DNA from: Raja brachyura
Lineage: Eukaryota
DNA: 64,000 nucleotides
Assembly: GCA_963514005.1 (NCBI GenBank)
Contig: OY740796.1
Location: 14,260,001-14,324,000, forward strand
Reading direction: 5' to 3'
Part shown: one piece after another, positions 10,201-49,396 of the stretch
Layout: every line of letters begins with the position of its first letter
Position numbering within the stretch: the stretch's first letter is position 1
Translations under genes and position numbers: made by a program
Notes under the pieces: model-generated
Told to the model about the DNA's origin: nothing
Databases searched by the model: none
Seen by the model: the letters and a program-made list of their open reading frames with translations, nothing else

Positions 10201-10221
10201 TATTTCCCAGGTGGAAATGTC

Positions 10222-11964: not shown

Positions 11965-12490
11965 AGGTGAGACCACACTTGGGGTTTTTGTGCAGGTTTG
12001 GTCACCCAGCTGCAGGGAGGATGTTTTTAAGCTGAAACGAGTATGGAAACGATTCAGAAGGATATTCCCAGGACTGGAATGCTTGTTGGATAAGGAGAAA
12101 CTGGATATGGTGGGGGAGTTTTCTCTGCAGCTTTGAAGGCTGAGGTGACCTTATAAAAGTATACAAAATCATGAAGGTCAAGATGATCAGTCATCTTCCC
12201 AGCATGGGTGAGTCTACAATATGAGGGCATAGATTTTGACAGAGGGAAAACATTAAAGAAGACCTCAGGGGCATCTCTTTCACTCAGCGGGTATTTGGAA
12301 TGAGTTGCCTGTGGAAGTTGTGGAGGCGGGTACAATTAGAGTATTTAAAATGCATTAAGACAGATGCGTAGATAGGAAATAGTTAGAATCATATGGGACA
12401 ATTGGGTAAAAAGGAGAAGCTCAGGTAGGCGACTTGATTGCCTTTGATGAGATTGTCCAAAGGTCCTGATACAATGTTGTGTAACTCTAA
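11965..12490 (+). mobile_element. Old CR1 LINE 3' fragment
   Basis: Decayed RPHL..VQxWSP and 3' tail similar to other copies in the window. Confidence 0.7.
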
Positions 12491-14589: not shown

Positions 14590-14810
14590 GATAGATACAA
14601 TGTGCTGGAGTAACTCAGTGAGTCAGGCAGCATCTCTGGAGGAAAAAAGATAGGTGATGTTTTGGGTTGGATCCTTTCTTCACTCTGAAGAAGGTTTCCG
14701 ATCCAAAACCTTACCTATTCCTTTTCTCTAAAGATGCTGCCCGATCTGCTGTTACTCCAGTATTTTGTGTCTTTCTTCAATAAACTAGCATCTGCAGTTC
14801 CTTCCTGCGC
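14590..14810. mobile_element. Fold-back Penelope-derived element
   Basis: gctggagtaactcag..gcagcatctctgga arm and its inverse around ctgaagaagg. Confidence 0.78.
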
Positions 14811-17800: not shown

Positions 17801-17825
17801 ATAACATGCTTTTCCCTTCTCTTAG

Positions 17826-17882
17826 AACATTTCCTCTCCTGAGAGTTCCCCAGTGCATAGGCCTGAGCCGTTTTCACCAGAG
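17826..17882 (+). CDS. SETD5: SETD5 57-nt symmetric (phase 0/0) exon, NISSPESSPVHRPEPFSPE, probably alternatively spliced
   Basis: Pyrimidine tract tgcttttcccttctcttag, donor GAG|GTAGTT. The peptide matches the NISSPESSP motif that follows PLQFE in KMT2E and long SETD5 isoforms (recalled). Confidence 0.88.
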
Positions 17883-20800
17883 GTAGTTATCCCAGTATCT
17901 CATTTAAACTCGCAAGGCTGAAATAGGTTCTTGCGGCATCTCTCCCTCTCTCTCTTGCTCTGTGATTCCAACACTATCTTTTTACAACATGATTCTTATA
18001 TTTTATTCATCTGGTTGAATTTGTGCATGTCTGACTCAAGTCATTAATTATTGCCAAACTGTGATTTAAGGTTGGGAACAAAATAGTAATAATAACCTGG
18101 AGAGAGAGAGAGAGAGTGAAAGGCAGGGGATAGGACCGAGGATCTGTCTGTGTATCTGATGAGATAACAAAGCAATAAATGGCATACAAGTCTAGTGGAA
18201 CTTAAATTATAACTCCAGAGCATTAAATGATAACTGGCATAATTACTATTATTTCCCTCATTGTCATGTTTGTTAGGAGTCTACTATTGTGTCAGTTCAC
18301 TAATTTGGTCGATCATTTGTTTAAATCTGGATCATGTTAACCCATCCAATTCATTGGGAGTTGCTTATAAAAATATCCCAATTTATACCAATTGTGCAGA
18401 ACTCGACCACTTTATTGTCCCAGCTGCTTTTACTCCACAGTAGGTTTCCTGGTGGAAATTGCTGTGGTACAGGTTTCCTATTGTCATATAGTTGTTTGCC
18501 AGCTCAACATGGCTCTTGTGAATTATGCTTGTTGCTGTCATTCTGCAGGCAGTAACAAGTGAAAGCAGCTATACGTGCTGCAGCTGATTCTGATGCAGCT
18601 CACATGCATGCAGAAGGTGGTGATTGGGGCCCATCAAGTCCACGCTGGTTCCAATCTTGCCTTCATTCCATCTTGTCTTAGACATAAGGGAGGAAACTAT
18701 GAACCCAGAGGAAAGCACTTGAGGTCAGGATTGAGCTTTGCTCAGTGCTGTGGTCCTCACTATTTGTAGAAAGATATACCAGTTCCAAACAACAAGCCTT
18801 CAACTACAGTGACATGAAAACATATCAAGTTGAATCCTGTAATTTTTCTTATAGCTGATCAATATGAATAAATTAAAATGAACACATTTAAATTTCTACA
18901 GAATGGATATATTTTAAGGATTTAATGAGGCATTTTAAGGATTTAGTAGCAATCTCACTAAGCATCGAAGCAGGTTAACTAAATATCATCTTCCCTCCCA
19001 AAGAAATGGATGGTTATATTAAAATTTCCACTTAGAAGATGAATTTATATTTTTTAAAGGAAGATTTCCACAGTCTGTTCAGACTAAAAGCCTGCTGGTC
19101 TTGTATGTCTGAGGTAAATGTGGTAGTTAATCTTTGTTGATTCGCAGACAGATCTTCTGACGGTGAGATAGATTTAGTTAATTAACATGTTGCTTTGTGA
19201 AGAATTGGACTCCAATTCACAACTGTCACCTACATGAATTGATCTTTTTGTGAGTGTGTGAGATGCAACCGTTCTGATTGTGCAGCCAATCCAACTGCCT
19301 GCCTAACATTCAAAACGTTAACCTTCACCTTGAGGATGCAGTGCATACTGTAGACCATTCACCTTCACAGATGAGGCATAAGGAGTTTGTTGTAGAGACA
19401 ACATTGCTTAAACTATAAGTTTTTGCAAGCGGATGAATTTAAGCTACTGTTAATAAAGTTTTTGCAATTCAGAATATCAGAATTGAAAATCTGAATAAAA
19501 ATATTTTGTCTGGAGGTTGAAGACTTGATTTAGAATATTTGATTTGCAGCTACTTTCCGACTCTGCAATTGGCTTTTGCAGTATAATTTCCTCATCGAGC
19601 CAATTTGATTTTGTTTAGGCACCTTCCGATTTATCACCTGTACAATTTCACCTTTATTTGGCTCAACTTTATCTCTCACAGCAGGCAGTTTGCTGGCTGT
19701 GTTCTTGGATAAAAAAAATATAAATTGATGTGGTAAAGATGATTAACCAACTGAAATAGTTTGTAGCCAGCTTCAGTCATCCGATGCTTAAAGAATTTCT
19801 GTGACAGTTGTATATCAATCTGTTCCCTTAGATTTCATAAAGGTGTGATCATGGATATTCCTAATACCTAAATTCCTTAATTAAAGCATGTTGGAAAGTG
19901 TTTTGAAATTTTTGCAAAAGTATTTTGATAGTGCCCTCCAATAACATTACTCAGTAAGCCCAAGTTTTTCATCAAAAATAGATTTATATTTCAGTTATAC
20001 CCTTTTCAAAAATATTTAAGCAATTTCCTTGCTCTCTCAGCCCGTGACGGTAAAATATATGGTAGGTGTACAGTTGGCTGATCTTCCTCTCTTTGGCTTT
20101 TCACTTCAAGAATGTGAAGCAGTCAATATTAAATACTAATAATTTGACCATGGCTATACTTAGCTTGAGACCAGACAACCAAATAAAACCCTGTAGAGCA
20201 GGCAGTTAGAAACCCTGCATCCTGATTGGGAGAGTCAGAGCTGCCAAGTCCTCAAATTACCCATGCATACTCTGCAGTTAGCTTTGGCAACTGTGGTGAA
20301 CAGGACCGATGAAGACTTAGATATTTGGAAGTTTTTGTAGTTGGCTCGCCTTTGTTTGTATGGGAAGATGATTATGTTAAAAGTATAAAAATGAGGCCTC
20401 CAGAAGAAAAGTAAAGAATTTTTGTTCTTTTAAGTCCATATGTTTTGGCACATATTAAATACAGGTGTTGGTAGTTTTAATTATAAATCTATTTCTTTCC
20501 AATGAACTGAGCTAACTAGTTAAGTCAAAAGTAATTCACCTCGATGGGAAAATTAACTTTCAGCAGTTTTGACTATTTAAGAAATAATTTAAGTCTTAAT
20601 CTTATTTTTGGTTTATTGCAGAGACAATTATTTTAAATTAATGTCTGTTAAATTCATTGGTGGAAAGGCATAGATGCTCCAAAACAAAATTAAAATAATT
20701 GTTTTGGTGTTTTGTAATCTAATGCCCTTAACAGTGATTTAAAGAAAATGCCAAATATGTTGATAACAAATGACAGGCTTAAAAGATCCACTGCAGTAGA

Positions 20801-21179
20801 CGTACAATGTTTATTTTGATGGGATTACTTCTCAACAACATCTAGAAACTCCTTGTGCCTGAATCTGTGAAAAGACATCTATTAAAACTGCCATTACACT
20901 AACCTAATGGAGGTGACTAGCAAAGCATCAAGTTACTTATTGTGTGAATAAGGAATGTACTGAAGCATTTGTATAATTGTAGTGTGATGCTCTTTATCAA
21001 TAAAGCACTGACGCCTGTAAGATATATTGTACACCTACAGTTTTTAATCAAATATTCCAGGTTTTGGGAAGATGAGGTAAAGATCCGAGCCTGACGACGG
21101 GAGGAGTTGACTGATTTGTTGATAATTATGCTTCTGTTAGACTCCAGACATCTAAATTTATTTCAGTGCAGATCCAGCA

Positions 21180-21540
21180 CCAGGCTACAACCCGTGTATC
21201 TTGGGGAAAATAAGCTGGAACGGGCCATTCAACTCCTTGTACCCGCTCCATCATTCAATAAGATCATAGCCGATCTGATCTTGGCCTCAACTCCACTGTC
21301 CTCGTCTTTACCAATAGGAGGAGTGCTATAGAGGAGCCCTCGACTCCTCTATAGTCCAAACATCTGTCAGTCTCCGCTTGATGCATTCAGTAATTTAACC
21401 TCCACAGCTTTCCAGAGAGTTCCAAAGTTTCATGAGTGACTGGGAAGAAATGTCAACCCATTATTCTGAAACGTTGCAACGTAATTCCATATTCCACAAA
21501 GGAAAACATTCTCTCAGCATCAACCAAGCCCCTCGGTGTA
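21180..21540 (-). mobile_element. Old CR1 3' tail fragment
   Basis: ccattcaac..ccatcattcaataagatcatagccgatctgat is the reverse complement of the CR1 tail. Confidence 0.6.
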
Positions 21541-23100
21541 AATCATTGGGAATATTGAAGATTTGGGATTCTAATACTGTAATTGGTGCATAAAATTGTA
21601 ACATTTATGGGGGGGGGGGGGGGGTTTAGCTGGAAGTTGTGAAATTCCATTGATTAAAATAGACCAATGGAAACCTTTTAACATTTTAAATTTTATGTAT
21701 TTGCCATTTGGGGATAGCTTTTTTGTTGCAGATTTGCACTGCCATTTGTCACCTTTGTTAGACAAGTATAATTAAAATAGGTATTAGTTTAGATTCCCTG
21801 ACTGGAGGTCCACTGGAGGTGACAGTCTCATAAGGAAAAAATCTACACCCCAAAGGTACTTAGAGTTTTTTATTATCTCATTGTGCCACCAGGTTATCAC
21901 AGCAAAACGAGGGCCTGGTAGCAAGTTTTTATCATTTATTCACAGAATATGGACATCGCTGTGTGGGACAGAATTAATTGTCCATTCCCATTTGCTAGGT
22001 CATTTTATAGATAGTCGAAAATCAACTGCTTCCACTGCAGCCAAAGCAGCCATGGAAGATGTATTTCTGACAAACAAAACAGTATTTTACAAAAATTCTG
22101 TTAATTTCAAGGCCAGCAATAGTTAATTTTTAAAAAAATTATCGCCCCGGTGGGATTTGAACTCATGCTTCTAGATTGTTGGTCCAGGTTCTTAATGGCA
22201 ATCCTGGTATTTTAGCCTGCCCTGCATCAATTATTTTTTTTAATGTTTACATTTGAGTAGGCTACAATTTCAAAGGGCAGCAGTTTTTATTAGCCTACCT
22301 TTGATCCACAAGAGCAGGTCTGACATTGTCAAATAGCTCGCATACACATTAGCGGCAAGGATTCTAGGGACATAATGGTTTTTTCCTTAATGTGATCAGA
22401 GGGTGTAACTGGCAGTAGTGCTGGAAATGGGTGCACTTGAGAGAGCTTGTGGATTTTAGGGAGCTAAAAGATGATATCTCCTGCTGAATGCTTCCGGCTC
22501 CAGCATTGGAGACCTAAGAACTATCATCCCAGCACCCAGTGCACTGCTGAGCTGCTATTTGTAACTTCAACTGAAAACTACATTTCAGCCTCCTTAGAGG
22601 AGAATCTTTCATTCACCTTTTATGCTATCCGTGCATCTGACTGGATGTCAAACAAAATGGATGCTGAGCAGATTTTTTAATATAAGATGCACATGGAGAA
22701 AGGGTTAGCTGAAAGTAGAAACCTGGTTCCTTGAGCTAAAGTTACCAGAACATTGTGGAGGCATCTTGTAGAACGCTCTTTAAAATTATGCATATGTTTG
22801 CATCAAAAATACCAGTGTTGGTGAAAGGAGTCATCATAAATGCACTATAAATCTACCAGAAATATTCTTTGGGAAATGTTCTCAAGATTCTGGGTTAAAT
22901 ACATATGTTAAAGATTTGATATGTATTTAAGGTATTTATAATTTAATGATCAGAAAAGTTTTTAATTGCTGTGCTGGTGTTTAAACAGAAGCAGAGTTCA
23001 GTCAACCGCCTCACTTGAAATAGTTTCTTTTGATTCCCCTCGTCAGGCTCATTTATTTTAATTTATCACTAACAAATAGTTCCTCCTTCTGTCATTTCAG

Positions 23101-23658
23101 CCGCCCCTGAGAGCGGATAATGACCAGTCCAGGACTGGTTTTTCAGATCTTTCTCTTCAAGCTGACCCAGATGCCACTACTCTTGCGGTCACCGCAGTAA
23201 CTGAGGGGCCACTGTCAGACTGTGCTGCTCAACTTCCATGTCCTACATTAACATTCCCCAGTGAATCTGAAACTGGGTTTACAGGAAGGAACAGCGATGG
23301 TCCCTTGTCCCTGAAAAACGCAGAACAAGCATTCAGGACAGAGTTTAACTTAATCTATGCCTGTTCGCCTTTGAACTCCAACCTCCGAGACCTCACTCCG
23401 ACACACAGGCTGGAGGGCCCTTACAGAGGACTCGAGAACAGAACCAATTACATCAGTGACAGGAAATCTTCACAATCGGAGCGAGGGTTTGGTGACGCTG
23501 TGTACATGAGTCCTTCTGGAGACTCCAGCTTTAACAGACAAGGCCAAGGATTCTTACCTGAGACTCTGCCAGGATCCATGTCTCCTCAAGCAGATCGGCA
23601 ACCTATGTTTTCTGAAGGAAGTACAACACCTCAGCAAAATCCACCACAGAAGAAAAAG
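23101..23658 (+). CDS. SETD5: SETD5 coding exon ending at a GC donor
   Basis: tcatttcag acceptor. Open frame PPLRADNDQ...SETGF...EQAFRTEFNLIYACSPLN...QNPPQKKK. The only phase-compatible donor is AAG|GCAAGT. Confidence 0.92.
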
Positions 23659-24420
23659 GCAAGTAACCAAATTTATGATAGCTCTGGGTATTATGCAGAA
23701 ATACAACAATTTATGAGTAGTAGCTCGCCTTAAGATACTTAATTTTTCCAAAGGTTAAATGTGGAGGCTGCATACATAGAAAAGTAATTATATGATAAAA
23801 TATAATCTTTTCACTTTAAAAGCTAAATACTTTTTAGGGAAAGAAGATCCAACTCTTGAGGTCATGACCAAAATTTAATAAAGTAACTTTTCACATGTTT
23901 ACCAACTTTCACTTTATCTACCATGATATTTGTTTCTTTCTATGCCGAGTAGGAGATTATAGGTTGACAAGCACAGGAGCTGCAAACAGAGCTTAATGTT
24001 AAGAAGAAAATATTTGTAGTTTTAAATCAAAACGTAAAGTTCAAAACAACATATTAATGTATAATTTGATAAAGAACCTAAAGGCGTTAGATTAAGTGGT
24101 TCTTTACTGCTAATTTAAATGTTGTTTGGAAAGTGATACTTTCAATCATTTCAAGTCAAAGCCTTCCAAGTCCTGAATTTTTCTTATTTTACATCAGAGC
24201 AACTGACAGTTTTGCCAAACAATGTAACCGACATCACTTTAATTGCTTAACCTTTGATGAATATGATTTTATGGATTACGTTGGAAACTTGAATTCCCTT
24301 CCTAATATTATCCATTTCTTCCATTTGGAGCTGCTTAAGATCCACACTTCAAACAAGATTAGACTACGGAAGCAGAAAATTGCAATTAAATCAGTGCTGC
24401 TCTCAGCCTACAGGGATCAT

Positions 24421-25454
24421 GCAGTGACTAGTGGGGTACCGCAAGGCTCAGTGCTGGGACCCCAGCTATTTACAATGTATATTAATGATTTGGACGAGGG
24501 AATTGAATGCAACATCTCCAAGTTTGCGGATGACACGAAGCTGGGGGGCAGTGTTAGCTGTGAGGAGGATGCTAGGAGGCTGCAAGGTGACTTGGATAGG
24601 TTGGGTGAGTGGGCAAATGCATGGAAGATGCAGTATAATGTGGATAAATGTGAGGTTATCCACTTTGGTGGCAAAAACAGGAAAGTAGACTACTATCTGA
24701 ATGGTGGCCAATTAGGAAAAGGGGAGATGCAACGAGACCTGGGTGTCATGGTACACCAGTCATTGAAAGTAGGCATGCAGGTGCAGCAGGCTGTGAAGAA
24801 AGCGAATGGTATGTTGGCATTCATTGCAAAAGGATTTGAGTATAGGAGCAGGGTTGTTCTACTGCAGTTGTACAGGGTCTTGGTGAAACCACACCTGGAG
24901 TATCGCATGCAGTTTTGGGCTCCTAATCTGAGGAAAGACATTATTGCCTTAGAGGGGGTACAGAGAAGGTTCACTAGACGGATTCCTGGGATGTCAGGAC
25001 TTTCATATGAAGAAAGACAGGATAGACTCGGCTTGTACTCGCTAGAATTTAGAAGATTGGGGGGGGGATCTTATAGAAACTTACAAAATTCCTAAGGGGT
25101 TGGACAGGCTAGATGCAGGAACATTATTCCCGATGTTGCGGAAGTCCAGAACAAGGGGTCACAGTGTAAGGATAAGGGGGAAGTCTTTCAGGACCAAGAT
25201 GAGAAAAACATTTTTCACACAGAGAGTGGTGAATCTGTGGAATTATCTGCCACAGAAGATAGTTGAGGGCAGTTCATTGGCTATATTTAAGAGGGAGTTA
25301 GATGTGGCCCTTGTGGCTAAGGGGTTCAGGGGGTATGGAGAGAAGGCAGGTACGGGATACTGAGTTGGATGATCAGCCATGATCATATTGAATGGCGGTG
25401 CAGGCTCGAAGGGCCAAATGGCCTACTCCTGCACATATTTTCTATGTTTCTATG
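24421..25454 (+). mobile_element. Young 5'-truncated CR1/HER1 LINE (RT C-terminus)
   Basis: VTSGVPQGSVLGPQLFTMYINDLD...KFADDTKL RT motifs. Open except for one frameshift at the G-run ~25059-25067. Ends in TTTCTATG tail repeats. Confidence 0.96.
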
Positions 25455-25579
25455 GCTGAGACTTGAACACAACACCCCAATCCCGCTCTCTCCCCCTCCA
25501 ACTTGATACCTTTTGTGCATGGAAATCTACCCATCTGCTCCTTAAATATGTGCAGTGAGGGCTCTGAAGGATGTGAAGG

Positions 25580-26035
25580 CTTTGAAGAGGATGTAGAAGT
25601 GCTTTGCCTGGATTAGAGGCCATAGGGGCAACAAAAAGAAGTAGGACAAACTTGGATTGTTTTCTCCCGAGCTTCGGAGGCTGAGGGGAGACCTGATGGG
25701 TTTATAACATTATGAGGGGCACAGATAGTGCACACAGTCAGAATCTTTTTTCCAGGGTATCAAAGACTAGAGGGGATAGCTTTAAGCTTGTAGGGAGGAA
25801 ATGTAAATAAGATGAGTGGAGCCAGTTTTTTTTTGTACAGAGAGGGTGTTAGGTGCCTGGGATATGCTGCTAGGGGTGGTGGTGGAAGCAGATTGGATAG
25901 TGGCTTTTAGATGGTTAGTTAAATATGCAGGGAATGGGGGGGATAGCTATCACGTGCAGGCAGAGAGATTGATATAAATTGGCATCGTTCAGCACACATT
26001 ATGGGCTGAGAGCCTGTTCCTGTGTGATATTGCCC
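25580..26035 (+). mobile_element. CR1 3' fragment
   Basis: ggaggctgaggggagacctgat and tail motifs. Confidence 0.75.
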
Positions 26036-26199
26036 ATGCTGAAACTGACTATGTGCCCCGCTTTCTGCTCTTTACATGTTTTGGTTCCAATTTTTTTTTT
26101 ATTATACTTCTACGAGGCACCTTGAGATTAGAGGCAGTATACAAGTCATTATCAGATGATATAAGATGGCCTTCTGCTGCAATTATACCCAATAATTGT

Positions 26200-26525
26200 C
26201 CTTTAGTATTGGTTTAGGTTTATTAATGTCACGTACTGTGGTACAATGGAAAGTTTTGGTCTGCATGCAATCCAATCAGAACAGATAATACTATACATTT
26301 CAGTCAAACTAAAGTAAAATAAGTAGAGGAAAGGAGAAGATGCAAAGTGAAGAATATAGTTCTCAGCATTGTAGCAAATCATTTCCACAGATAAGATCCA
26401 ATATCCACAATGGGGTAGAAGTGAATTAGACTATACCCTAGCTTATGGAAGGACTGTTCAGAAGCCTGATAACAAAGGAAGAAGCTGTTTCTGAGTCTGC
26501 TGGTGCGCGCTTTCAACCTTCTGCA
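26200..26525 (-). mobile_element. Rex1/Babar-type LINE 3' end
   Basis: Reverse strand reads ARTSRLRNSFF..IRLLN followed by a 3'UTR ending aataaacc. Confidence 0.7.
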
Positions 26526-27928
26526 AGCCATGATTTTCTTCCCTTTCTACTATTTGGTAGAGAATCATAGTTAGCGAGCACAGGAGCAGAAAACCTAATC
26601 TTGAGTTTTAATATTAGGAACAATTTGCTTGCAGTTGAAGAAGAAAAGGAAAGCAAAGGCCAATGTTGCATGGTTAATGCACAGTTTTAGCAGAGGGAGA
26701 AGGACTGGACATGCTCAAGATGCAAGATCACAATCGTGCTAATAGCGACATAGTCCACGGACGATTTGTAAAATTAGTAACAATTTGGTAATGGTGTAGT
26801 GCACGTTCCCCCAAAGAGGAGGTACACTTAGTATGTTTATAGCATTGAGTATTTTGTCTGGGAATGGTAGTGAATGTTGTGTCTCGAAAAACATGAAGTT
26901 GCTAGTTATCCATTTATCTGTCAGGAACTGCTCACCATTCCAGTGGCTGAGCTACTATTTTCAAATGTACCCAGTAAAGTAGCAGGGGAAAATGTGGAAT
27001 GCTTCTGGAACTAAATCCTTCCCTGGCCATCTGAGATGAATATGTTGTCTGTACTGGTTTTGGCTCTTTCTAGGAGAGGAAATTGTCAGGCTGTATGATG
27101 TATGAAATGCCTTCCTATCCACACAGTCCAAACAGTAATGTAAATTCCCATTGGAAATAGCTCGAATTCTCCTTACATTTTTTTGTAACTGTCTAGATAT
27201 GCTTGTGTATGCTGGACCTCGTACACATACCTTCTCCAGCGAATGTTGGCATGAGCAGAAAAAAATGCAGACATACCAACAAACCATAGCCAAACTTAAA
27301 AGGGATTTACTAAGTGGAAACATCAGCCGAGTTTGAGTTTGGCAGGAATGTCTTGGAGTGGGGGGTGTGGAGGGGGTGGAAGAGGAAGAGGTGGAGGTGA
27401 TGCAGGGAGGATGGGGGGTGGCGATTGCCAAATCTATGCTCCAAGTTGGCCTCCAACCCAGCAGATCGACCATTCCTTTGCCATTCAGGCATGTTGATTT
27501 TTCTTTTGTACCCTCACAGCCAAGTCTCCCTCTTCCCCCTTTTGCGTCTGGTCTCCTGATATTTTTCCGCCCTGTCCAAGAGGCAACATAATAAAGAGCC
27601 AGTGAATGGATATTGAAGGTGTGTTGAAGGTCAATAAGAACTCTTTGACATCTACCTGAAGCACCAACAAGGACAGTTGAGACCAAAATATAGAATTTCA
27701 GCATCAGACTGTGCCTCTTTCAATGCAACAATGAACTGTTAGTTTGCACTATGGGCTCGGTTCCTGAGTATTATCCAGCAGATAAGGCTTTAGTTCCCTG
27801 ATGTTTTAGAATATCTGCTTGGTTGCCCAAGTAAATTATTTGTACTTCCCAGAACATTTTCACACGATTGAAATGTCATGGAAGTAGTAACAGATATTCT
27901 TAGGACTCATGTTGTGGTTGTTTTCAAG

Positions 27929-28272
27929 GTATCTTTGCTGGAATATAGAAAACGTCAACAAGAAGCGAGAGGAAGTAGTTCCAAATCAGACTGCCTCGGC
28001 TCAGATCTTTCCAAAACACCCAGCAACATGGGCACTCCAACCAGACGAAATAGCGACGGCACTTGTGCACAGTCAGCAACCAATGGTGATTCCACCGCCA
28101 TATCTAGGTCGTCACGTAGATCATCGTCACCCCCAAGTGGTTTTTCATCACCAGTGCACGCTTCAGTGCCTCAAGTTGAGGAGGTCAGTCCATCGGATCC
28201 GACCAGCAGCAAGAATGCAACTCTCTCTGCAGCAGCCAGCATTAAAAGTCGGAACAGCATGAGCACGAGGTG
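27929..28272 (+). CDS. SETD5: SETD5 coding exon
   Basis: ttttcaag acceptor, TG|GTGAGT donor (phase 2). Encodes VSLLEYRKRQQEAR...EEVSPSD...STR(W). Confidence 0.94.
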
Positions 28273-28352
28273 GTGAGTATACTAACCAATTCAAGGCAAC
28301 ATTTTTATCTGAGAGTAGAATTGGGGATTACATTTTTGCTCAATTGAAGTCC

Positions 28353-28640
28353 AAGCTGCTGCCTCCCAGCGTCAGAGACCCAAGTGCGATGCGCAGATGG
28401 TATAGTTGCTGCCTCAGCATCAGAGACCCAAATGCAATCCTGACCTCGGGTGTTGTCTGTGAAGTTCCCTATGACCCTATGGGTTTCTTCCCACTTCCCA
28501 AAGACGTCCAGGTTTATATGTTAATTGACCTCTATAATTTAACTTTGGTGTGTAGGGAGTAGATGTGAAAGTGGGATAAGGTAGAACTAGTGTAATAGCT
28601 GATTGGTGGACTTTATACTCTATTTCCATACTCTATTTTT
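28353..28640 (+). mobile_element. HE1-like SINE with duplicated head
   Basis: gctgcctc..cagagaccca occurs twice, followed by the V-SINE core. Confidence 0.7.
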
Positions 28641-29698
28641 CAATTGACCAATCAATGCTAGTTTACGGCTTGTGTTGTACTAACTTGCTGTAGCAACTAC
28701 TTGTGTTGCAGTAGTTACTCTGTTGAGGTTCTGTTTCGTGATCGTGAGCCTCTAGTTATGGTAACTGATTTCATTCATTTTTGAGCTTCACAAAATTACC
28801 ATTCTAACTCCATTGTTATATTCTTTCCTGAAGTCAATGAGCCAGCATAGTTTAATTGTCCCTTTCTTAGCCAAGCACTGTGAGGCCAGTTAATGATTTC
28901 CCCGAAATGTAATACTGCTTAGTCTGAGAAAACTAGCTCAGCACAGACTTGGAACCTTTAGGCAGCCATTTGGCTAAAAGGCATTGTACAATATCTGGCT
29001 GTCTTTCTAATAATGCTTGCTTGGCCAGGGTGGAGAAATTAAGGATGAAACATACCTTGGGGAGCAGATGTCATGTATAATCATTCACCAAGTGTTTCTT
29101 AGAGCAGTGAACCATCCACTTCTGCAGATAATGTACCTGCAAACTGCGCTCTTAAAATAAGGCCCATTGTGACCACACACCTTCCACCATGCAAGGACAT
29201 TGCTATTAGAGGGCAGAGCAAGCCTTGCCCAATAAAGAACTGGAAAAATGTTGACCGTTGGCTAAACTATGTGTAGGCTTTACAGGTGGTCAAGTTTTTC
29301 AAATTTGTATACACTAATCAAAATCATTTGGACATGTTTTAAACAATTATTAAAAATGTTAAACGTAATAGGACGTAATATTTTTAAGCAGTTAAGACAT
29401 AAAACAAATCTATAACATATCAATTATTATAGCTTTTTTATTTTAATATATCTCCAATTATCAATGACATTACAAAGCAGTGTTCTTTGATAACAACAGA
29501 ATGTAAAAGGACCATCAGGGCTGTCTTAGAATGAAGCTTCAGGACCTGAGTCCTGCATACAGCTTTTGGATTGCTATGGATTGGCTCAAGCATTAACCAA
29601 GTTCATGTCATAGCAAGCCCTGCAAGAATGGAGGGATAAACAAAGAGAAGAAAGCTATTTTGGGGAAAAAAATGGGTGTGGTTGTGTGTTTATTTTAG

Positions 29699-29874
29699 GA
29701 TGGTCCCTACATCAGTAGAACGATTGCGAGAAGATCGGGGAATGTTGGAACGTGTTCTTAGGAGGGTGGAAATTGGAAGTATGAAGCGAACAGGAGAAGA
29801 GCGAAGCACATTGGACCGTGTTCTGAGGAGAATAGAAACCAGTGCAGTGGACTCTGCGAGGGAGAAGGATGCAG
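29699..29874 (+). CDS. SETD5: SETD5 coding exon
   Basis: ttttag acceptor completes the W codon. Encodes MVPTSVERLRE...EKDA. G|GTAATG donor (phase 1). Confidence 0.93.
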
Positions 29875-30894
29875 GTAATGAACATTATTAACTGATCTGG
29901 AGTTTTTTTGTGAAGTTTGTATTTTGACCATGCAAAATGGATTTTGAATGGTCTAAATCTTTTGTGTTCTGTTGAACCTTTTTCCTCTGCAAAGTTATGG
30001 CTGTTTGTTTCTTTTAAATAAAGGACTTAATACAGCTTCAATATAATACACTCGTTATATCGCAGTTTGAAGGCACCACTAGTATTATCATGTCGACAGA
30101 GATGAAAATTAAGTGAATATTAATTTCATTTATGATGTAGGTGTTTAAACCTGTGTTGTATCTAGGTGTGCTGATACATCTTTAGCACCAAATGTTATTT
30201 TGACAGATTGTTGGAGTAGATCAGATGCTAGTCACGCTGGTACCGCACATGGCACTAATCCACAATGCTGATTCACTACAGTGCTCTTGGTCTTCCAGTC
30301 CAACCACTCACCAGCATGTACTCCTTCCACACCATCTTCCCTGCGCCCCTCCTCATCCCATCGTACCTCAAATAAGACATCCCCTGGTGCTGCACATTTC
30401 TGTGCCCAAAACCCAACATGGCCTAGCAATAAATCACCCACAGTTAGTGTGAAGAGTTTGCCTATGAGATCAAGTGTGGGACAGGCCAGGACAAGTGGTG
30501 TAAACACTCAGTGGTGAGATGAGCGGCTCGCTCAGGCCGCATTCAGACCAGCACGGTAAATGTAGACCATTACTGGGATTTGGCTGCAGTAGCAACACTG
30601 GTAGACAGATCATCTAGATCCAGTGGTCTCTCTCACCACCTTTAGCTGAATATGATGGATACTGCTGTCCTGTCCTCTTGGTCGAACCTGTTCCCACAGA
30701 GCAATCACCAGTCTTTTGCAACCAAAAACTGAGAGAGACACTTACTTGCATCTCAATCCCATAGGAGGTGATGAGAGAGAGATAGCAGACCATGGGTAGT
30801 GCATATGGAGCACGTGCTGCCAGTCCCTGGCAATGGACGAATGCTCAGCAGGTGATTGTGATGCACCTTTGGGTCACACATCCTACAGCAGGCT

Positions 30895-31885
30895 CTCAAT
30901 CAGCTGGGCAACTGGGCTAAGGAATGGCTAATGGAGTTTAATGCAGATAAGTGTGAGATTAGGCATTTTGAGAAGTAAAACCAGGGCAGACCCTTGACAG
31001 TGAATAGCAGGGCTCTGGAGAAAGCTATTGAGCAGAGGGATCTTGGAGTACAGGTACACAGTTCCCTGAAAGTGCCATCACAGGTAGATTGGAAGATGAA
31101 GAAGGCTTTTGGTACATTGTCCTTCATTAGTCAGGGTATTGAGGAGAGAAGTTGGGACGTTATGTTACTGTGGACAAGATGTAGGTGAGGCCAAATTTGG
31201 AGTACCGTATAATAACAAGGAACTGCAGATGCTGGTTTATACCAAAGATACACACAAAATGCTGGAGTAACTCAGCGGGTCAGGCAGCATCTCTGGAGAA
31301 CGTGGATAGGTGACATTTCAGACAGACGGGTTCCAGCCCAAAACGTTGCCAATCCATGTTTTTTGCCTGACCTGCTGAGTTACTTCAGCGTTTTGGGTCT
31401 ATCTTTGGAGTACTGCTGCTATAGGAAGGATGTCATTGAGCTGGAAGGAGTGCAGAGTAGATTTAAGAGGATGTGGCCAGGACCTGAGAGGCTGAACTGT
31501 AGAGGGCAGGCTAGGACTTTATACCTTGGAACGCAGGAGGCTGAGGGGTGCTCTTATAGGGGTATATAAAATCATGATAATGCACAGAATCTTTTGCCTA
31601 GGGCAGGGAAACCAAAAACAAAAGGACATGTGGTTAGGTTGACATGGGAAAAATGTAATATGATCCTGAGGGTCAACTTTTTCTTTGAGAGGGTGGGCAT
31701 TGGCATGAACTGCCAGAGGAGGTAGTTGAGGCAGGTACTATAATAGCATTTAAAATACACTTGGACACGTGCATGGATTGGAAAGATTTAAAGATAAATG
31801 GTTAAATGGGACCAACTTAAATGGGGAATCTTGGTCGGCATGGAGAAGATTGGCTGAAGGACAAATTTCCGTGCTGTATGACGAT
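30895..31885 (+). mobile_element. CR1 3' fragment with nested Penelope-derived insert (31206-31403)
   Basis: EQRDLGVQVHSSLK motif. The insert is flanked by a tttggagtac duplication. Confidence 0.85.
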
Positions 31886-32169
31886 TGATATCTGTAGTCC
31901 CATAGTCCAGCCAACAACAGTCCTCAAAGGCAGTCACCACACTGAGTCCTGGGGCAATTCATCATTCGATTAATGACATATTCCTTGCTTTGTTGGGAAA
32001 GCTAATTACACATCTTTCAATATATAATTTTATAATGATCCCATGTAGCGATTTTGTGCTGCTTTCTTGTGAAAGCATCCTCAGCATTAAGTGTGGTATC
32101 ACAGCTACCACTACTCTATACTGTAATTAATATCAATTGCCCTCATATCAGATAGCACAGAAGCCAAAG

Positions 32170-32815
32170 GTAAAAGCAATGCAAGTGTTTCTTTCCAGAG
32201 AGCTAGAATGCAAATACAGGGATGTAATACGGAGGCTCTATAAGGCCCTGGTCAAGCCGCATTTGGAGTATTGGGCAATTTTGGGCACCATATCTGAGGA
32301 AGGATGTGCTGGCCTTGGAGAGGGTCCGGAGGGTTACAAGAATGATCCCAGGAATGAGTGAGTTAACTTACGATGAGTGCTTGACGGCACAGGGGCTGTA
32401 CTCGCTGTAGTTTAGAGGGTGGGGGGGCGGGGCGAACGGGGACGACGACACACCTCATTGAAATCTACCAAATAGTGAAAGGCTTGGATAGAGTGGATGT
32501 GGAGAGGATGTTTCCTCTAGTGGGCGAGTCTCGGACTAGAGGTCATGGCCTCAGAATTAAAGGATGACCTTAAGGAAGGAGATGAGAATTTATTTAGTCC
32601 GAGGGTGATGTTTCTGTGGAATTCTTTGCCACAGAAGGCTATGGAGGCCGTCAATGACTATTTTTAAGGCAGAGATAGATAGATTCTTGATTAGTATGGA
32701 TATCTGGGGAGAAGGCAGGAGAATGGGGTTAGGAGGGAGAGAAAGATCAGCCATGATTGAATGGCGGAGTAGACTTGATGGGCCGAATGGTCTAATTTTG
32801 CTTCTATTATGACAT
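32170..32815 (+). mobile_element. CR1 3' fragment
   Basis: LYKALVKPHLEY motif and gatcagccatgattgaatggcgg tail. Confidence 0.85.
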
Positions 32816-33360
32816 GACATCCTCCCATGCATACCTTCCAATTCACCGCCCTTGTCGATAAAATCCATAAGCAATTACAATAATTTTGACTTGTCCTGTA
32901 GTATTTGCATTCTAAATCAGCAACCCCAGAGGTTCAGGGTAAATTAAATCTACATTTAAAGCAATCCGATGTTTTTTACTCCACTTTTATGGTTTAACTG
33001 CAGACCATACTGTACGTTGCTGTGCACAGCCATGATGAATGAAAGTTGGAAACCAGCTGTAGAGCTTCATTAGAGATAGCGTTAGAATTTATAGGTTGCG
33101 TTTTTTAAAACCAGCGGCTTACAACACGGCACATTCAAAGGCCTTAATCTGAAGGTAATCTCTCCTCCACCACCTCACCAACCCACCATCTACTCAGTAG
33201 CATAACATTCAAAGTGCTGAAAAGAAAACAATGATTGCCTTTATATTGGAATAGTTAAATTTTGGTTGCAGTCTATATTTAATCTTCGCAGTTTCTATTG
33301 GGACAGGTGTTATTTTGTTTCTTGCTGCCAGTGACATCGCTCTTACTGCTGCGTTTTCAG

Positions 33361-33470
33361 ATTCCACAGACGGTGAAGGATCAGAGACGCATGGCCTTGC
33401 ACGCATCAAGGGTTCCCCAATTCAGAGTCCGCAGAGATATAGCCACAGTCCTTCCAGATATAATCACCAG
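33361..33470 (+). CDS. SETD5: SETD5 penultimate coding exon
   Basis: ttttcag acceptor (phase 1), CAG|GTAAAG donor. DSTDGEGSET...SPSRYNHQ resembles recalled DPADGEGPET...SPSRYSYQ. Confidence 0.9.
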
Positions 33471-34379
33471 GTAAAGATGCCTTCCCACACCAAGACGGTT
33501 CCAGTTTGTTAAGCAAAAAAATTATAAAACAATAGAGACTTTTCTTCTGTGCTGGCTTGGTCTTAATCACAAACCTCTTCTTCCCATATCCCTTTATCAT
33601 CTACTTAAGACATTGGGATCCTAGATTGGTAAAATTTACCAATAAACCATTTGTTGATATGAGTGAAATTCCCATTATTTCTTTCTCCGTGTGGAGTTCC
33701 TCTGTCTCTTAAGCCCTGATGATTCCTTGTTTCACAACATAGGTCTTGATCAATTTCCATTGAGTCCTGTTCTCAGGTGTCCAATGTACGTACAAAGGTG
33801 CAAGGAAGTCCTTAATACTGTTAAACGCCAGTCATTTTGGGCTTGCTGCACCTTTGACTGGCATTTTCTGTGGACCTTACAGACAGTCATGTACTTCACA
33901 CTCCCTCACCAGGATTATTGGCCGATCAGGTTCACAAGACTATCCAGATACTTTGTTTCATACTAAGAGACTGAGATCAGTTGCTTTCAACCTTACATTT
34001 TTGTTGTTAATTTAGCTTCCTAGCACGTACCAGAATGCCTTTGATCTACGATTGGCCACGTAATGAATTTAAACACATTACAGCAATCCCCTTTGTAACT
34101 AACTGAATAAGATTGTGGATGATCTCCCATTCGCTGCAAATTAGTGTAAGATTCATGCTCTTTATTATTTTGCAAAATTGGGATGTTACATAGTTGTGAT
34201 TGCACTATTTGTACCTCCATCATTTTCTGTTTTTACATTAGTGTAAACAAAGAGCATGGGATTTCACTTTAATGTTTCATCTGGAAATACGAGTTAATAT
34301 GGTGTTTTATTATATTTTTAATAGATGCATTATATAAGTGTGGTTTTGTACATTAATTAACTTTAATCAACTTCTGCAG

Positions 34380-35012
34380 ACACAATCTGACGGAGTCGTC
34401 CCTGAATCTCACGTACTTCCACAACAAAGTATGTCTCCCTACAGAACGCACAGCTCCTCGAGTGTTCCCTCGGCTCACACTCAAGGACATGTCTACAGAT
34501 CTTCATCCCATTCGATGGGGCAGAGTGGATCCCAACATACGATAGACTCCAGCTCAACAGCAACTCCTGTCTCTACTCTCTACTTGAGCCCAGTTCATTC
34601 AACGTCTGTTGATACCTCTGTGGTCCAGTATGTTGGGAATTCTGGATACTACAGTGGTCAGCAGCATTCTGGGAGTGTCTTGCATACACTGAGTAGCACT
34701 CAACAAAAGACTACTTCTGGATCTACTCCTTCTATTGCTGCTAGCCCACTACAGAGCACCACAAAAAACATAACTGACTCAACTTTGACCCCAACTCCAA
34801 GCACCATAAACTCTACAGTTTCACAGACTGCAAAGCCATCACAATCAGGCTCATGGACCTTAAGCCCAGCAGGTTCAGGGCAAGCGCTTCACTCTGGAGC
34901 TAAGATTGGCACAGCATCAAGTTCTCAGCACTACCGAAGAACTGGGGTAACCCAGTACCAACCTCCACAGGTCCAAGGTGCAAATGTAAGAACGCAATCA
35001 AGCACATATTAG
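34380..35012 (+). CDS. SETD5: SETD5 terminal coding exon (Ser/Thr-rich), TAG stop 35010-35012
   Basis: cttctgcag acceptor in phase 0. QQSMSPYRTH, LSPVHSTSVD, GYYSGQQHSG, SQHY..GVTQYQ..VQG..VRTQ match the recalled SETD5 C-terminus. The ten exons total 2823 nt = 941 codons with no internal stop. Confidence 0.9.
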   Translation, partial: TQSDGVVPESHVLPQQSMSPYRTHSSSSVPSAHTQGHVYRSSSHSMGQSGSQHTIDSSSTATPVSTLYLSPVHSTSVDTSVVQYVGNSGYYSGQQHSGSVLHTLSSTQQKTTSGSTPSIAASPLQSTTKNITDSTLTPTPSTINSTVSQTAKPSQSGSWTLSPAGSGQALHSGAKIGTASSSQHYRRTGVTQYQPPQVQGANVRTQSSTY

Positions 35013-44121: not shown

Positions 44122-44127
44122 TTTATT
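44122..44127 (-). terminator. Candidate poly(A) signal AATAAA of microseminoprotein-like gene
   Basis: First AATAAA I found on the - strand after the stop (~710 nt). An alternative lies at 43533-43538. Confidence 0.45.
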
Positions 44128-44833: not shown

Positions 44834-44954
44834 TCAGCCAACCCAGCTGTAGGCGCGGCAGTCTTTGTCTGGATGAGAGCGATACACTATCCGGTAGCTA
44901 CAATCCATGTAGATAGGTTTGCACTTCTTAGGCCATGAGGTTGGTCTCATTGGT
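44834..44954 (-). CDS. Microseminoprotein-like gene, exon 3 (terminal, TGA)
   Basis: tttttcttccatgtgcag acceptor (phase 2). Encodes TPMRPTSWPKKCKPIYMDCSYRIVYRSHPDKDCRAYSWVG*, aligning to the MSMB C-domain P..Y..C....C.Y.VV...P.K.C...W. Confidence 0.92.
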
Positions 44955-45429
44955 CTGCACATGGAAGAAAAATGAATACAGAATCAAGACATGTGACTTT
45001 AAAATAAAAGAGATAGATAATAAAAACAAAATATACTTTGTTCATTTGATTGTAGTTCCACTGAACAAAAATAACAACCACCTCAATGCTAGCAACTAAT
45101 TTGGGCCATTTGGTAGTACCTTTAAGGTGGAGTTGGAGATGGTGAGGGTGGGTTTGGTTCAGGATTTGGTTTTAGGGAATGAAGCTGGACAGGCGTATGG
45201 AGTATTAGTGAGCAAACTTTCTATGTGGGCCTGATATATTTATGCCGTTGCTGTGGAAATTTTCAAGAATATAGGAGCCATTGCTGTAAATTGGGACAAA
45301 GCCAATTTTGCCAAACCAAGACGTGATGTAGGAAACAGAGGCCTGGTACAGGACTACTCACATTGTACTACTTACTGTTCAATAGGGAAGGAAGGAAGGA
45401 ACTAATGAACGAATGAACCAAGTATAGAC

Positions 45430-46110
45430 GGCTGTGGAGGCCAAGTCATTGGGCATTTCTAAAGCGGAGATTGACACTATTCTTGATTAGTAGGGCATGG
45501 GGAGAAGGCAGGAGATTGGGGTTGAGAGGGAAGGATGTATCAGCCATGACTGAATGGCAGAGTAGACTTGATGGGCCGCAAGGCCTCATTCTACTGCTAT
45601 GACATGGATCTTATGAATAAAATGACGCAAAGGAGATCTTATAAATATAGCTTTTTTAGGGGTTAGAGAGGGAGTGTAGTAATAAAGTAAGAGGGTGGTG
45701 GTTCAACGGGATTAGGATGTGAGAGAGTTTTTAATCAGTTTGAGTGTTGGGTGAAGGAAGACATTTCAAACAGGGCCAGCAGGTGTACTGGAATCAGGTC
45801 ACTGATAATCTACTTATTTTATTTTCCAGGAGCTTGCTGGTTTCTTTGCAGGGATTCAATTATCAAAAAGCCATTCTCAGGACTCTGGATTTCTGGTTTG
45901 GGAATACTGGTGCACTCCTTTGCAAATTAACAAATTTATGCATGTTGTTCTTCATTCGACCTTTCAAAGACATTTGGAAAGGTAGTGGACAGGAAAGGTT
46001 TAGAGGGTTCTGTGCCAAACTCGGGCATGTGGTACTTGCGTAGATGGAGCAGCTTGGTCAGCATGGGCAAGATGGACTGAAGGACCTGTTTCCATGTTAT
46101 ATGACTCTAA
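45430..46110 (+). mobile_element. CR1 tail fragments in intron 2 of the microseminoprotein-like gene (45430-45605, 45960-46110)
   Basis: Tail motifs ggagaaggcagg..atcagccatg..gaatggc and gaaggacctgtttcc. Confidence 0.7.
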
Positions 46111-46321
46111 TGCAAATGGTCACTCTGACCACCTGAAGATTACTGGACTCCAGACGAGCACCAACATATAGAGCTTCCAGGGAATTTGGAAAACCGAAGT
46201 AGGGGAAGGATTAAAAAAAAAGAATATCTTCTAACTACTGTGTATTGCACGCTAGGCAGTTGAAGATGGAAATTAAGCAATATTAGTGACTGTTTAATAA
46301 TGCAAAACAGAAATTACTCAC

Positions 46322-46421
46322 GTGATACAGAAGAAGCCTTCCTCTTCACAGTAACACTTGTCACAGCCTCTTTGAAACTTCTGGCCTGGTTTGAAAATCT
46401 TGTCATTGTATTTGCATTTCC
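46322..46421 (-). CDS. Microseminoprotein-like gene, exon 2
   Basis: ttctattttcag acceptor, AC|GTGAGT donor (phase 1 to 2). Encodes GKCKYNDKIFKPGQKFQRGCDKCYCEEEGFFCI with the C-x2-C-x-C-x6-C pattern. Confidence 0.92.
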
Positions 46422-48969
46422 CTGAAAATAGAACGCGTCAAACGTTGATCAATCCAGTTACTGCCGCCAGGATTAAGTTAATTGGAGATAAATGACATGG
46501 CATTCCCCATGCTGAGAATGGGATCATTTGGCCAGGCCATTGGGCTGGCCATGTGAGCACAATTCATTTGCCTTTATGGAATAACTTCAAATCAAAGAAA
46601 AAGACAGAGAAGCATCACCCACACAATTGTCTACTTGTTATTGATTGTTCCAAGATAAGTGAGGCTCGAAGACCTTATTAAACTTTATTACCTTTTTGAA
46701 AAGGTGATTAACAGTTTCCATTGGTGTCAATGTGAGACGGTAAGGAACAATTCCTTCAGTGTGGATACAACATGAATTATTTGGTCTGCACACTGTGAAG
46801 TTTGGCATCTGCCAGCCTTGACTTCCCATTATCCTTCTGAACACATGTAGTGCTAATGCTGCCTTATCCACCAGAGAGGGCTTTGTTGATGAAGAAATGT
46901 GTGATAAATCAGATGGAATAATCAAGTTATGGATTACATCATGACACTCAATAAACAAATTTACTTCAACTAAATCCAGAATTTTGTTGCCATTTCTTAA
47001 GTTGCTCCAAATTCCTTTAACCCGACAAACTTATGCTTGCTGACTTACATTGATTCCCAGTCCGGCAACACTTCAATTTTACATTTCTCATCCTCGTGTT
47101 CAAAACTCTCCATTGCACGTTCCGGACTGAGTAACACAATCAGGCATTCCTCCAGTACCTTTATGACAGCCCTGATCTCAATTGAGAACATGCTGTGACG
47201 TGGAATTTGAAATGGTCCTTAAAACCCATCTAAATGCCATCTTAGCGTCATATAGCACGGAAACAGGCCCTTCGGCTTTCCTTGTCCACGACCACCCTTC
47301 TACACTAGTCCTCCCTGCCTGTGTTTGGCCCATATCCCTCTAAATCTCCAATCGCTTGTCAGTTTGACTTAAAACTGTATGTGAGCTCAAAACTGGGACA
47401 GAAAGCATTTACACCCTTGGTTAGCTGCAGTCACTGTGAATCATCCAGCTATCAGACCAAAAGCTGACAGCAAGGCTTTCAAATTGTAACTCGCCAAAAT
47501 TCACAATGATTTCGTGCCTTTACTATTGCGGCGCACTTTATAGACACAAAAGACACACAAAGCTGCAGCAACTCAGCGGGTCAGACAGCATCTCTGGAGA
47601 GAAGGAATAAGTGACTCCTTCAAACAGCACCCCCAATGTGGGATGCTCTCGTTCCACTCTCTCTGCTGAAGTTCTCTGTCCGACGAGAGTTCTGCAACAT
47701 CTCGCTGCAGCCCCTCTGCGAGATCCTTCGCACTTTATTCATATTTGCAACTTGTCCGTGGTTTCAATTAGCCGGGCCATTATTCCCCACCCCGAGTGAA
47801 ACGCAATTCTTCCCAGGAGGACTCGCTTTCCAGTTGCTACTCTCTAGCAGTTAATGTTGGATGCTTCCCAACATCCACAGCGAACTTGGTCATTCCGATT
47901 TGGCGCAAGTCAGAAAGGAATAATATTCTCAGCCTCCCGCTTACAACCTGTGCAATGGTTGGATTTTTGTTATAAAGTCTTGCCATTCTGTCCAGCCCCC
48001 TCCAGTCCTGCACCCTTCTCCTCCCACGCACTCAGCCAAGACATTCGTCTAAAACAGAGTAATTAGGCCATTGCTCGACCCTGCCTACACTAATGTTTGC
48101 TCCCCACCCAGCTCCGTTGGTAACGGCGGGCTGCTAACCTTGCCACTGGCTGCGCTTTGGCATGTTTAAGAAGGCATGTATTAAATGAGCTCGAGTGTCG
48201 GGTGAAATAGTTCACCGCAGGTCTGGAAAAAGTTAAACCGACTTATGCCATGTTTGCAATTTTTAACATCGGGGACTGATTTAATACATTTTCGTTCTCC
48301 TACTTAATTAGGGAAAGAAAGAGGTTTGCGTCGATAATCTCATTCTTTGCCAGCGCTCGTCCGTGATAAACTCTTGATTTTATTCCCCAAATGTGCACGG
48401 TCAATGTCACGGAATAAGTTCTGTATAATTGTGTGTAACGTCGCTTATAACTCGGTGTCGACGCTGCACGTTGGTTGCTGCTCGTAAAGCGCCTGGTTAG
48501 AGCCTCCCTCCAGTTGCAACCGGGTATCGGAGATGAAGCGATCGAATACCAAGTTCCAACGCCTTTTCACGAAGGGAGCCGATCTGCCCATCCTTGTCCT
48601 CCACAGATGCTGCCTGGCCCGCTGAGTTACTCCAGCACCCGCTGTGTGTTGCTCAAACCTGCAGCATCTGCTGTTCCCTGTGTCTCCAAACCCGCAATAT
48701 GGCCATTCCCAACTCCTTTGGGAACTACGGGCTGCTAACTCTTCCACCGACCGCGCCTTAGGAAGCTTAAGAAGGTGTTACCATGTGTTAGATTACATCC
48801 TTGCAAAAGTCTCTACTGTGAACATGATGAAAAGTGACGGTCCGAGATTCACATTATTGAGACAGCATGGAAATAGAACATTCGGCCCAACCTGCCTATG
48901 CAGACCAAATTGCCCCATCTACATTAGTCCCACCTGCCAAAGTTTGGCCCGTATCCCTCAAAACCTTGA

Positions 48970-49063
48970 AGCTGGAAACAAAATGCTAGAGTCACTCAGT
49001 GGGTCGGGCAGCATCTCTGGAGAAGAGGAATAGGTGACGTTTCGGGTCGAGACCCTTCTTCAG
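48970..49063 (-). mobile_element. Penelope-derived half element with intact hammerhead core motif
   Basis: Minus strand reads CTGAAGA-A-GGGTC-TC-GACCC-GAAA-CGTC at 49063-49036. Confidence 0.8.
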
Positions 49064-49284
49064 TTTATGTTTCAGACAATTCTTCGAAGAGAGCGTGTGT
49101 CTGATCACTGTGGCTGTTGGGCAATGGATGGGAGTGATCTGTAAGAGTGATGGGGAGTGAAAGAATGACCCTGCTCCCATTGCAGCCACTTTAGGGCCAT
49201 TCCCCTCCCATCCCGCCTCATTCACGCCGTTATGCCCCAACCCACACACCGACCCAGCTCGGCTCCCAGCTGCCCTTTGCTCAC

Positions 49285-49396
49285 CTTGACCGAAATAGAG
49301 CCCCGCTTCGGAAGGACTCGCCACCCAGAGAAGGACCAAAGCAAGACAGAGCACGGCATACACAGACAGCCGACTCCAGGACGCGCCGGGCTCCAT
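49285..49396 (-). CDS. Microseminoprotein (PSP94/MSMP/MSMB)-like gene, coding exon 1 (signal peptide)
   Basis: gagATGG start. MEPGASWSRLSVYAVLCLALVLLWVASPSEA|GLYFGQ has a hydrophobic core and an S-E-A cleavage site. Donor AAG|GTGAGC (phase 1). TATA box ~80 nt upstream. Confidence 0.88.

Follow-up and report, generated by a model that had tools for sequence, protein, structure and literature searches.

A stretch of 64,000 nucleotides (nt) from Raja brachyura (assembly GCA_963514005.1, contig OY740796.1, positions 14,260,001 to 14,324,000 of the forward strand; hereafter the window) carries, on its minus strand, a predicted gene for a small secreted protein that in all probability belongs to the PSP94, or microseminoprotein, superfamily. 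The gene model consists of three exons, which join into 333 nt, or 110 codons followed by a TGA (Table 1). An earlier note, made from the letters of this DNA alone, had proposed these exons, and the coordinates, GT-AG sites, phases and 110-residue translation that it gave all match those found here.

The gene and its exons

That the window carries a real gene is, from sequence comparison, nearly certain. Both acceptors consist of a pyrimidine tract followed by CAG, and the introns are in phase 1 and then phase 2. Exon 2 encodes the cysteines at positions 9, 26, 29, 31 and 38 of the mature chain, and exon 3 encodes those at 51, 58 and 72 together with a conserved linker; both exons are shorter than a list of 90-residue open reading frames can show. 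Proteins from shark, coelacanth and paddlefish match exons 2 and 3 in tblastn searches with E values of 4e-21 to 8e-11, and shark protein P0001 matches exon 1 with an E value of 1.6e-4. When a profile of 20 orthologues was run against the six frames of the window, only exons 2 and 3 were matched (E 9e-21 and 2e-16, with the next at 0.21), and no second copy of the gene was found there. Repeats common to the rest of the window lie in the introns and flanks, and on no exon. A chance open reading frame or repeat-derived exons are ruled out by the tblastn matches, the orthologue profile and the repeat mapping. In teleosts, unspliced genomic reading frames are interrupted at the two intron positions of the window gene, and a 995-nt contig, P0032, holds all three exons without introns and reads as the spliced transcript of a teleost orthologue.

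The upstream region was inspected between the TATAAA and the start codon, and contains no ATG. A strong donor, CAA/GTAAGT, lies upstream of the TATA box at 49709 (minus strand), and two pyrimidine tracts, each closed by an AG, precede the ATG at about 49417 and 49397; these sites could belong to an additional, non-coding exon at the 5' end. For bamboo shark, the orthologue is recorded as 'isoform X1', and the first exons are wrong in teleost models P0009, P0011, P0012 and P0035.

Table 1. Features of the gene and its surroundings, in window coordinates.
Feature	Position	Strand	Remark
TATA box, TATAAA	49476..49481	-	85 nt 5' of the ATG; putative function
Coding exon 1, 112 nt	49285..49396	-	signal peptide and start of mature chain; phase-1 donor GTGAGC
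Predicted signal peptide, 31 residues	49396-49304	-	encoded within exon 1
Intron 1, 2863 nt, GT-AG	46422..49284	-	contains interspersed repeats
Coding exon 2, 100 nt	46322..46421	-	predicted N-terminal Greek-key domain; phase-2 donor GTGAGT
Intron 2, 1367 nt, GT-AG	44955..46321	-	
Coding exon 3, 121 nt including TGA	44834..44954	-	linker, C-terminal domain and near-invariant terminal strand
First AATAAA past the stop	44122..44127	-	presumed use would give a 3' untranslated region of ~0.7 kb
Presumed SETD5 orthologue, 3' two-thirds	2253..35012	+	tail-to-tail with the microseminoprotein gene; context

Orthologues and the mature chain

Exon 3 alone was used as a query to retrieve proteins of catshark and bamboo shark (two of two candidates), to which it is 87% and 85% identical; its identity to the coelacanth sequence is 67%. 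The catshark protein as a query added coelacanth, paddlefish and one unnamed record, and a profile of those five sequences gave 31 matches among 1554 candidates. The 24 named matches come from two sharks, one coelacanth, paddlefish, reedfish and 19 teleost records, and none is from a tetrapod. No lungfish, jawless fish or invertebrate is found among the 31 matches, nor, in this word-limited search, any canonical MSMB, MSMP or SSP. An exhaustive comparison of exon 3 with 1.84 billion cluster representatives gave 14 matches, 11 of them within this group (54-62% identity) and the other three being long proteins with a partial match.

The window protein was compared with the 20 named orthologues that have a complete mature region (n=21); the remaining 11 matches, seven unnamed and four mis-predicted or partial models, were left out. 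Over the mature region, identity to the window protein is 82% for catshark and 80% for bamboo shark, 66% for coelacanth and for paddlefish, 58% for reedfish and 48-57% for teleosts. In the gene tree the window protein joins the sharks (100/98), a placement that marks its host as a cartilaginous fish, and eel with Aldrovandia, whitefish with Dallia, the characiforms and the percomorphs are recovered, as single-copy orthologues should behave, while the deeper forks lack resolution. Sharks and bony fishes diverged about 420 million years ago (PMC7293782), and the lineage is, to judge from the sequences compared, at least as old as the jawed vertebrates. The gene may well have been lost in tetrapods, an absence that rests on protein databases in which it is visibly under-annotated (about 20 teleost clusters and no zebrafish match) and on searches that depend on words in common or merge relatives more than 50% identical.

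The mature chain is exactly 79 residues long, without insertions or deletions, in all 21 members, and all 21 have cysteines at mature positions 9, 26, 29, 31, 38, 51, 58 and 72. A cleavage motif of small-x-Ala (SEA, SDA, TEA, TQA or AQA) is found at the same place in every member, and the best 15-residue hydropathy of the signal region is 2.77, suggesting by analogy that the signal peptide would be cut after Ala31 and the protein secreted. None of the 21 members has a cysteine at mature position 2 or 39; both positions are hydrophobic throughout (I, L, V, M or A at position 2, and F, L, I, V or Y at position 39). In human MSMB, C49-C50 is seen in the profile match to the PDB sequence, and C2 is presumably the other half of a C2-C50 disulfide; the equivalent bond from first to sixth strand is C2-C43 in chicken MSMB3. 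Nearly all microseminoproteins carry ten cysteines according to PMC3268785, and the ten cysteines and five disulfides of MSMB, MSMP and USMH/SSP are reduced here to eight cysteines. The PSP94 spacing described in the earlier note therefore holds at eight of the ten positions, and the C2-C50 pair is gone. By homology, four disulfides would form between mature C9 and C31, C26 and C58, C29 and C38, and C51 and C72, and the fifth bond, by which the first strand is pinned to the sheet in MSMB, would give way to a hydrophobic contact of residue 2 with residue 39. The first strand is still formed in an AlphaFold2 model (see below), so the contact probably replaces the lost bond.

Conservation is uneven along the chain. 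At least 20 of the 21 members share the same residue in 26 of the 79 columns. The last nine residues reach a mean pairwise identity of 87% and the linker 72%, against 43% for residues 1-8, although Tyr3 is kept in 20 of the 21. The chain ends in Gly in 17 members (window codon 44837-44839) and in Trp or Arg in the other four. The mature chain of the window protein has an isoelectric point (pI) of 9.1 and a net charge of +7; the charge is +4 to +11 in 19 members, +1 in Aldrovandia and +2 in Anguilla. Residues R24, K50, K/R65 and R73 are basic in 20 or 21 members, and among the invariant residues, aromatic ones, Gly, Pro, Ser and Thr prevail over basic ones. Within birds, orthologues of MSMB1 and MSMB2 are 53-60% identical and those of MSMB3 81-82% (PMC3268785); the 66% identity to coelacanth, set against the 53-60% of avian MSMB1 and MSMB2, points to a conserved partner.

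Family, fold and neighbouring genes

The Pfam PSP94 profile (PF05825, gathering cut-off 22 bits) matches all 24 members of the alignment at E<=0.1. It passes the cut-off in five of the six full-length relatives with scores (22.3, 24.1, 27.2, 27.5 and 30.6 bits), and falls below it in bamboo shark (20.8 bits) and for exon 3 of the window alone (19.2 bits, E 0.0019). The best PDB sequences for the family's own profile are porcine and human MSMB, with E values of 2e-5 to 2e-4. An AlphaFold2 model was built from 24 sequences for the catshark orthologue, which is 82% identical to the window protein, with a predicted local distance difference test (pLDDT) of 83.8, about 90 over the mature chain, and a predicted template-modelling score (pTM) of 0.53. 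The best Foldseek match to the model is human PSP94 (E 3.1e-5), followed by chicken MSMB3 (E 2e-4). VIA comparison gives a Z of 8.7 to human PSP94 (root-mean-square deviation (rmsd) 3.2, with 79 aligned, residues 32-110 onto 1-94) and 8.2-8.7 to chicken MSMB3 (rmsd 2.5-2.8), a Z of about 5 to SSP-2 and tick CirpT1, and at most 4.3 to VWC domains. The top Foldseek and VIA matches are thus all MSMB over the full length, and the model predicts a Greek-key N-terminal domain with a C-terminal beta domain. An earlier model from five sequences (pLDDT 60.8, best Foldseek E 1.3e-3) is superseded by this one. In the Atlas, the best cluster is beta-microseminoprotein at 0.90, and the MSMP cluster is third at 0.84.

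Membership in the PSP94 superfamily is thus very highly probable, and the secreted microseminoprotein proposed in the earlier note is supported by Pfam, by the model and by the hydrophobic signal core with its conserved cleavage site. The intron phases of 1 and 2 are also those of zebra finch MSMB1, chicken MSMB3, lizard USMH1 and two marsupial MSMP genes, as computed from file 2 of PMC3268785.

Other resemblances are weaker. The VWC profile (PF00093, cut-off 27.6 bits) scores 14-18 bits in the six proteins with scores; a VWC or pacifastin identity was rejected, with scores below the cut-off and structural matches that are only partial. Exon 2 alone (46324-46419, minus strand) resembles VWC/VWF and pacifastin modules at Pfam E values of 0.004-0.011, below cut-off, which fits a common origin for these small disulfide modules and the N-terminal domain of PSP94. 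Tick complement inhibitor CirpT1 (PDB 6RPT/6RQJ) comes next after MSMB among the structural matches, over ~70 residues, and SCRG1 is among the Atlas look-alikes at 0.77, a lead only. Weak matches to an arenavirus glycoprotein and to PA2G4 are taken as chance.

The lineage resembles MSMB/PSP94 (PF05825; PDB 3IX0, 2IZ3) in its signal peptide, two-domain all-beta fold, eight of ten cysteines in register, Tyr3, linker Pro, terminal Trp and intron phases. It differs in the missing C2-C50 pair, in length (79 versus 94 residues), in sequence (about 23-26% identity), and in being single-copy, slowly evolving and, as far as the 64 kb show, at another locus. The four-exon layout of MSMB and USM/USMH, in which the ATG ends exon 1, is also not found; instead, the ATG lies within the signal-peptide exon, although a further non-coding exon may precede it. 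Chicken MSMB3 (PDB 6RWC) is likewise short, cationic (pI about 9), conserved within its lineage and ends in Val/Ile-Gly, but has five disulfides, four exons, a place in the avian MSMB cluster and 18-20% identity, and is bird-specific and oviduct-specific, unlike this fish-wide lineage. MSMP (PSMP, prostate-associated microseminoprotein) shares three coding exons, phases 1 and 2 and strong conservation among vertebrates, but its mature chain has 103 residues, its cysteines number ten (PMC8913720), and tetrapods possess it. USM/USMH and SSP-2 (PDB 6IMF) have the same fold (Z 5.2), and marsupial USM provides a precedent for an eight-cysteine member (PMC3268785). In USM a truncation removed cysteines at the C-terminus; here the C-terminal domain is intact and the missing pair is the N-terminal one. 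USMH/SSP genes, unlike this one, have four exons, lie in tandem near ARID5A and diversify fast.

A lineage separate from MSMB, MSMP and USMH is accordingly likely. The third paralog suggested by the earlier note does appear to stand apart from MSMB and MSMP in cysteine pattern and locus, but it would be a fourth lineage rather than a third, since three vertebrate subfamilies (MSMB, MSMP and USM/USMH) are already defined in PMC3268785, the available text of which mentions neither SETD5 nor LHFPL. Nor is the gene hidden, as that note had it: orthologous NCBI models exist, for example scyTo_0003938, LOC122558875 and LOC106704471. Their source names are mostly 'hypothetical' or 'uncharacterized', with 'beta-microseminoprotein-like' for paddlefish and reedfish, so that 'unstudied' describes the gene better than 'hidden'. 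In the full-text literature searched, no paper describing the lineage was found (among the top-ranked results of broad queries, with subscription journals thinly covered), and three orthologue locus identifiers did not occur. This eight-cysteine lineage of jawed fishes is apparently annotated by pipelines yet undescribed, and is best treated as the fourth. An unnamed little-skate expressed sequence tag, GD274048, appears in the source table of PMC3268785 and might correspond to this gene, and nothing was found to link zebrafish msmp2, considered as a possible name, to the gene.

Within the window, the exon peptides across 2.3-35 kb look SETD5-like, and we take the gene there to be the SETD5 orthologue; Atlas and PDB searches with one exon did not confirm this identity. 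A cattle SETD5 primer (PMC9704577) matches the window at 5287-5306 with three mismatches, and chance would give a mean of 0.01 such matches (one of 100 shuffles had a match). Several AATAAA signals follow this gene from 35306. In whitefish (Coregonus), model P0013 is an LHFPL domain (E 2.5e-25) fused to the exon 3 orthologue. From its sequence, P0013 is a chimeric prediction that includes the LHFPL C-terminal part, an annotation error revealing synteny, which places an LHFPL gene upstream on the same strand in whitefish. With P0013 as the query, no LHFPL exon was found within the window, so that neighbour is shown for whitefish only. The lists for human 3p25.3 in the available part of PMC7902511 give SETD5 and then LHFPL4 with no microseminoprotein named, and an order of SETD5, this gene and LHFPL4, with the gene in between absent from humans, may be inferred from two species. 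MSMB is flanked by FAM21C/ANUBL1 and USM/USMH by ARID5A. A check for these syntenies (FAM21C/ANUBL1/ARID5B or ARID5A) over the 64 kb found SETD5 as the immediate neighbour, with LHFPL in whitefish. Reverse-transcriptase fragments of long interspersed elements, presumably CR1-like, are found at 24091-25363, and repeats resembling short interspersed elements are abundant, with many copies at 50-64 kb. No further genes were recognised at 49.5-64 kb, and an Rfam scan of the window gave no match.

Candidate functions

The explanation favoured here, to which as a whole a probability of about 0.4 is given, is that the window carries a functional, single-copy gene of a fourth microseminoprotein lineage, whose product is a secreted binder of the CAP/CRISP type. 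PSP94 binds CRISP3 with picomolar affinity, using the edge that its first strand forms with its last, and triflin, a snake CRISP, is blocked by SSP-2 in a comparable manner (PMC7150914). The first strand of PSP94 also blocks sterol binding by CRISP2 (PMC8857485). By analogy, this small protein would bind with high affinity to a conserved partner outside the cell, most likely a member of the CAP/CRISP family, using the exposed edge of its N- and C-terminal strands, and would dampen or sequester that partner at mucosal, reproductive or plasma sites. The almost invariant terminal strand and the retained Tyr3 fit such edge binding, and a CAP-type partner is tentatively proposed. Several points weigh against this explanation. 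Residues 1-8, which include the strand by which PSP94 binds CRISP2, are the least conserved of the chain, and the position of the Phe implicated by a docking model with CRISP2 (precursor F24, read as mature position 4) is aromatic in only one of the 21 members. What was modelled is the catshark orthologue, with a pTM of 0.53, and not the window protein, and the separateness of the lineage is judged from its cysteines, its locus and a gap in scores. Strong conservation of a single copy would be just as fitting for a receptor ligand like MSMP.

Such a ligand, signalling through a cell-surface receptor as PSMP does through CCR2 (PMC8913720) and possibly amidated at its C-terminal Gly, is by analogy a rather unlikely reading. 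MSMP likewise has three coding exons, the first of which contains the ATG, and is reported to be single-copy and slow to evolve; the net positive charge of the mature chain would suit this reading as well. The longer, ten-cysteine chain of MSMP and the lack of any indicated receptor speak against it. The terminal Gly that amidation would use is present in most members but swapped for Trp or Arg in four. Chicken MSMB3 has been found without its terminal Gly (PMC8167871), and its reported mass lies 0.25 Da from that of an amide and 0.73 Da from that of a free acid, weak evidence given that in the same spectrum the intact form is 3.4 Da off. Antimicrobial peptides usually diversify fast, which counts against the innate-immune or antimicrobial role suggested in the earlier note. 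That role, now framed as a cationic, heparin-binding antimicrobial of mucus, egg coats or reproductive fluids, is by analogy quite unlikely for a gene that is single-copy in the window, indel-free and slow-evolving, with no tandem copy of the kind seen in MSMB/USMH clusters. The charge of the window protein, the four conserved basic positions and the tie of chicken MSMB3 with PSP94 as top structural match all favour it, and MSMB3, which is cationic, conserved across birds and antibacterial at 100 ug/mL (PMC4904793), is still a precedent. The charges of only +1 and +2 in two elopomorph fishes nevertheless weaken killing driven by charge, and the invariant residues are mostly of other kinds.

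It is very unlikely that the protein is a divergent orthologue of a named subfamily (MSMP, or a fish copy of MSMB/USMH) or a stand-alone VWC protein. Two NCBI records are named for beta-microseminoprotein, UniRef calls two others 'VWFC domain-containing', and VWC scores weakly in 21 of the 24 members, but VWC stays below its cut-off and its structures reach a Z of at most 4.3. The word-limited search gave no canonical subfamily member, and the family profile, which reaches MSMB structures at 2e-5 to 2e-4, scores full-length members at 1e-28 or better. The eight cysteines and the SETD5/LHFPL neighbours, rather than FAM21C/ANUBL1 or ARID5A, would also separate the gene from MSMB and USM.

A broader and rather doubtful proposal is that an ancestral jawed-vertebrate microseminoprotein at SETD5-LHFPL4 stayed single-copy and indel-free for more than 400 million years in sharks, rays, coelacanth and ray-finned fishes, and was lost before the tetrapods. 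Its product would be an undiscovered secreted ligand, perhaps amidated at the C-terminus, with a conserved partner and a role linked to aquatic life in gill, skin, lateral line or external fertilisation.

The gene does not amount to a new kind of system, and models of it already exist in automated annotation. What microseminoproteins do in the body is not settled, in part because MSMB changes quickly and undergoes duplication. This eight-cysteine paralogue, single-copy and free of indels from sharks to teleosts, offers a clean handle on the question, with knockout possible in fish. Its invariant surface, in the model, marks a putative binding site, and the predicted fold tolerates the loss of the C2-C50 bond. 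For the history of the family, the vertebrate lineages would increase from three to four, with a candidate gene loss at the transition from water to land.

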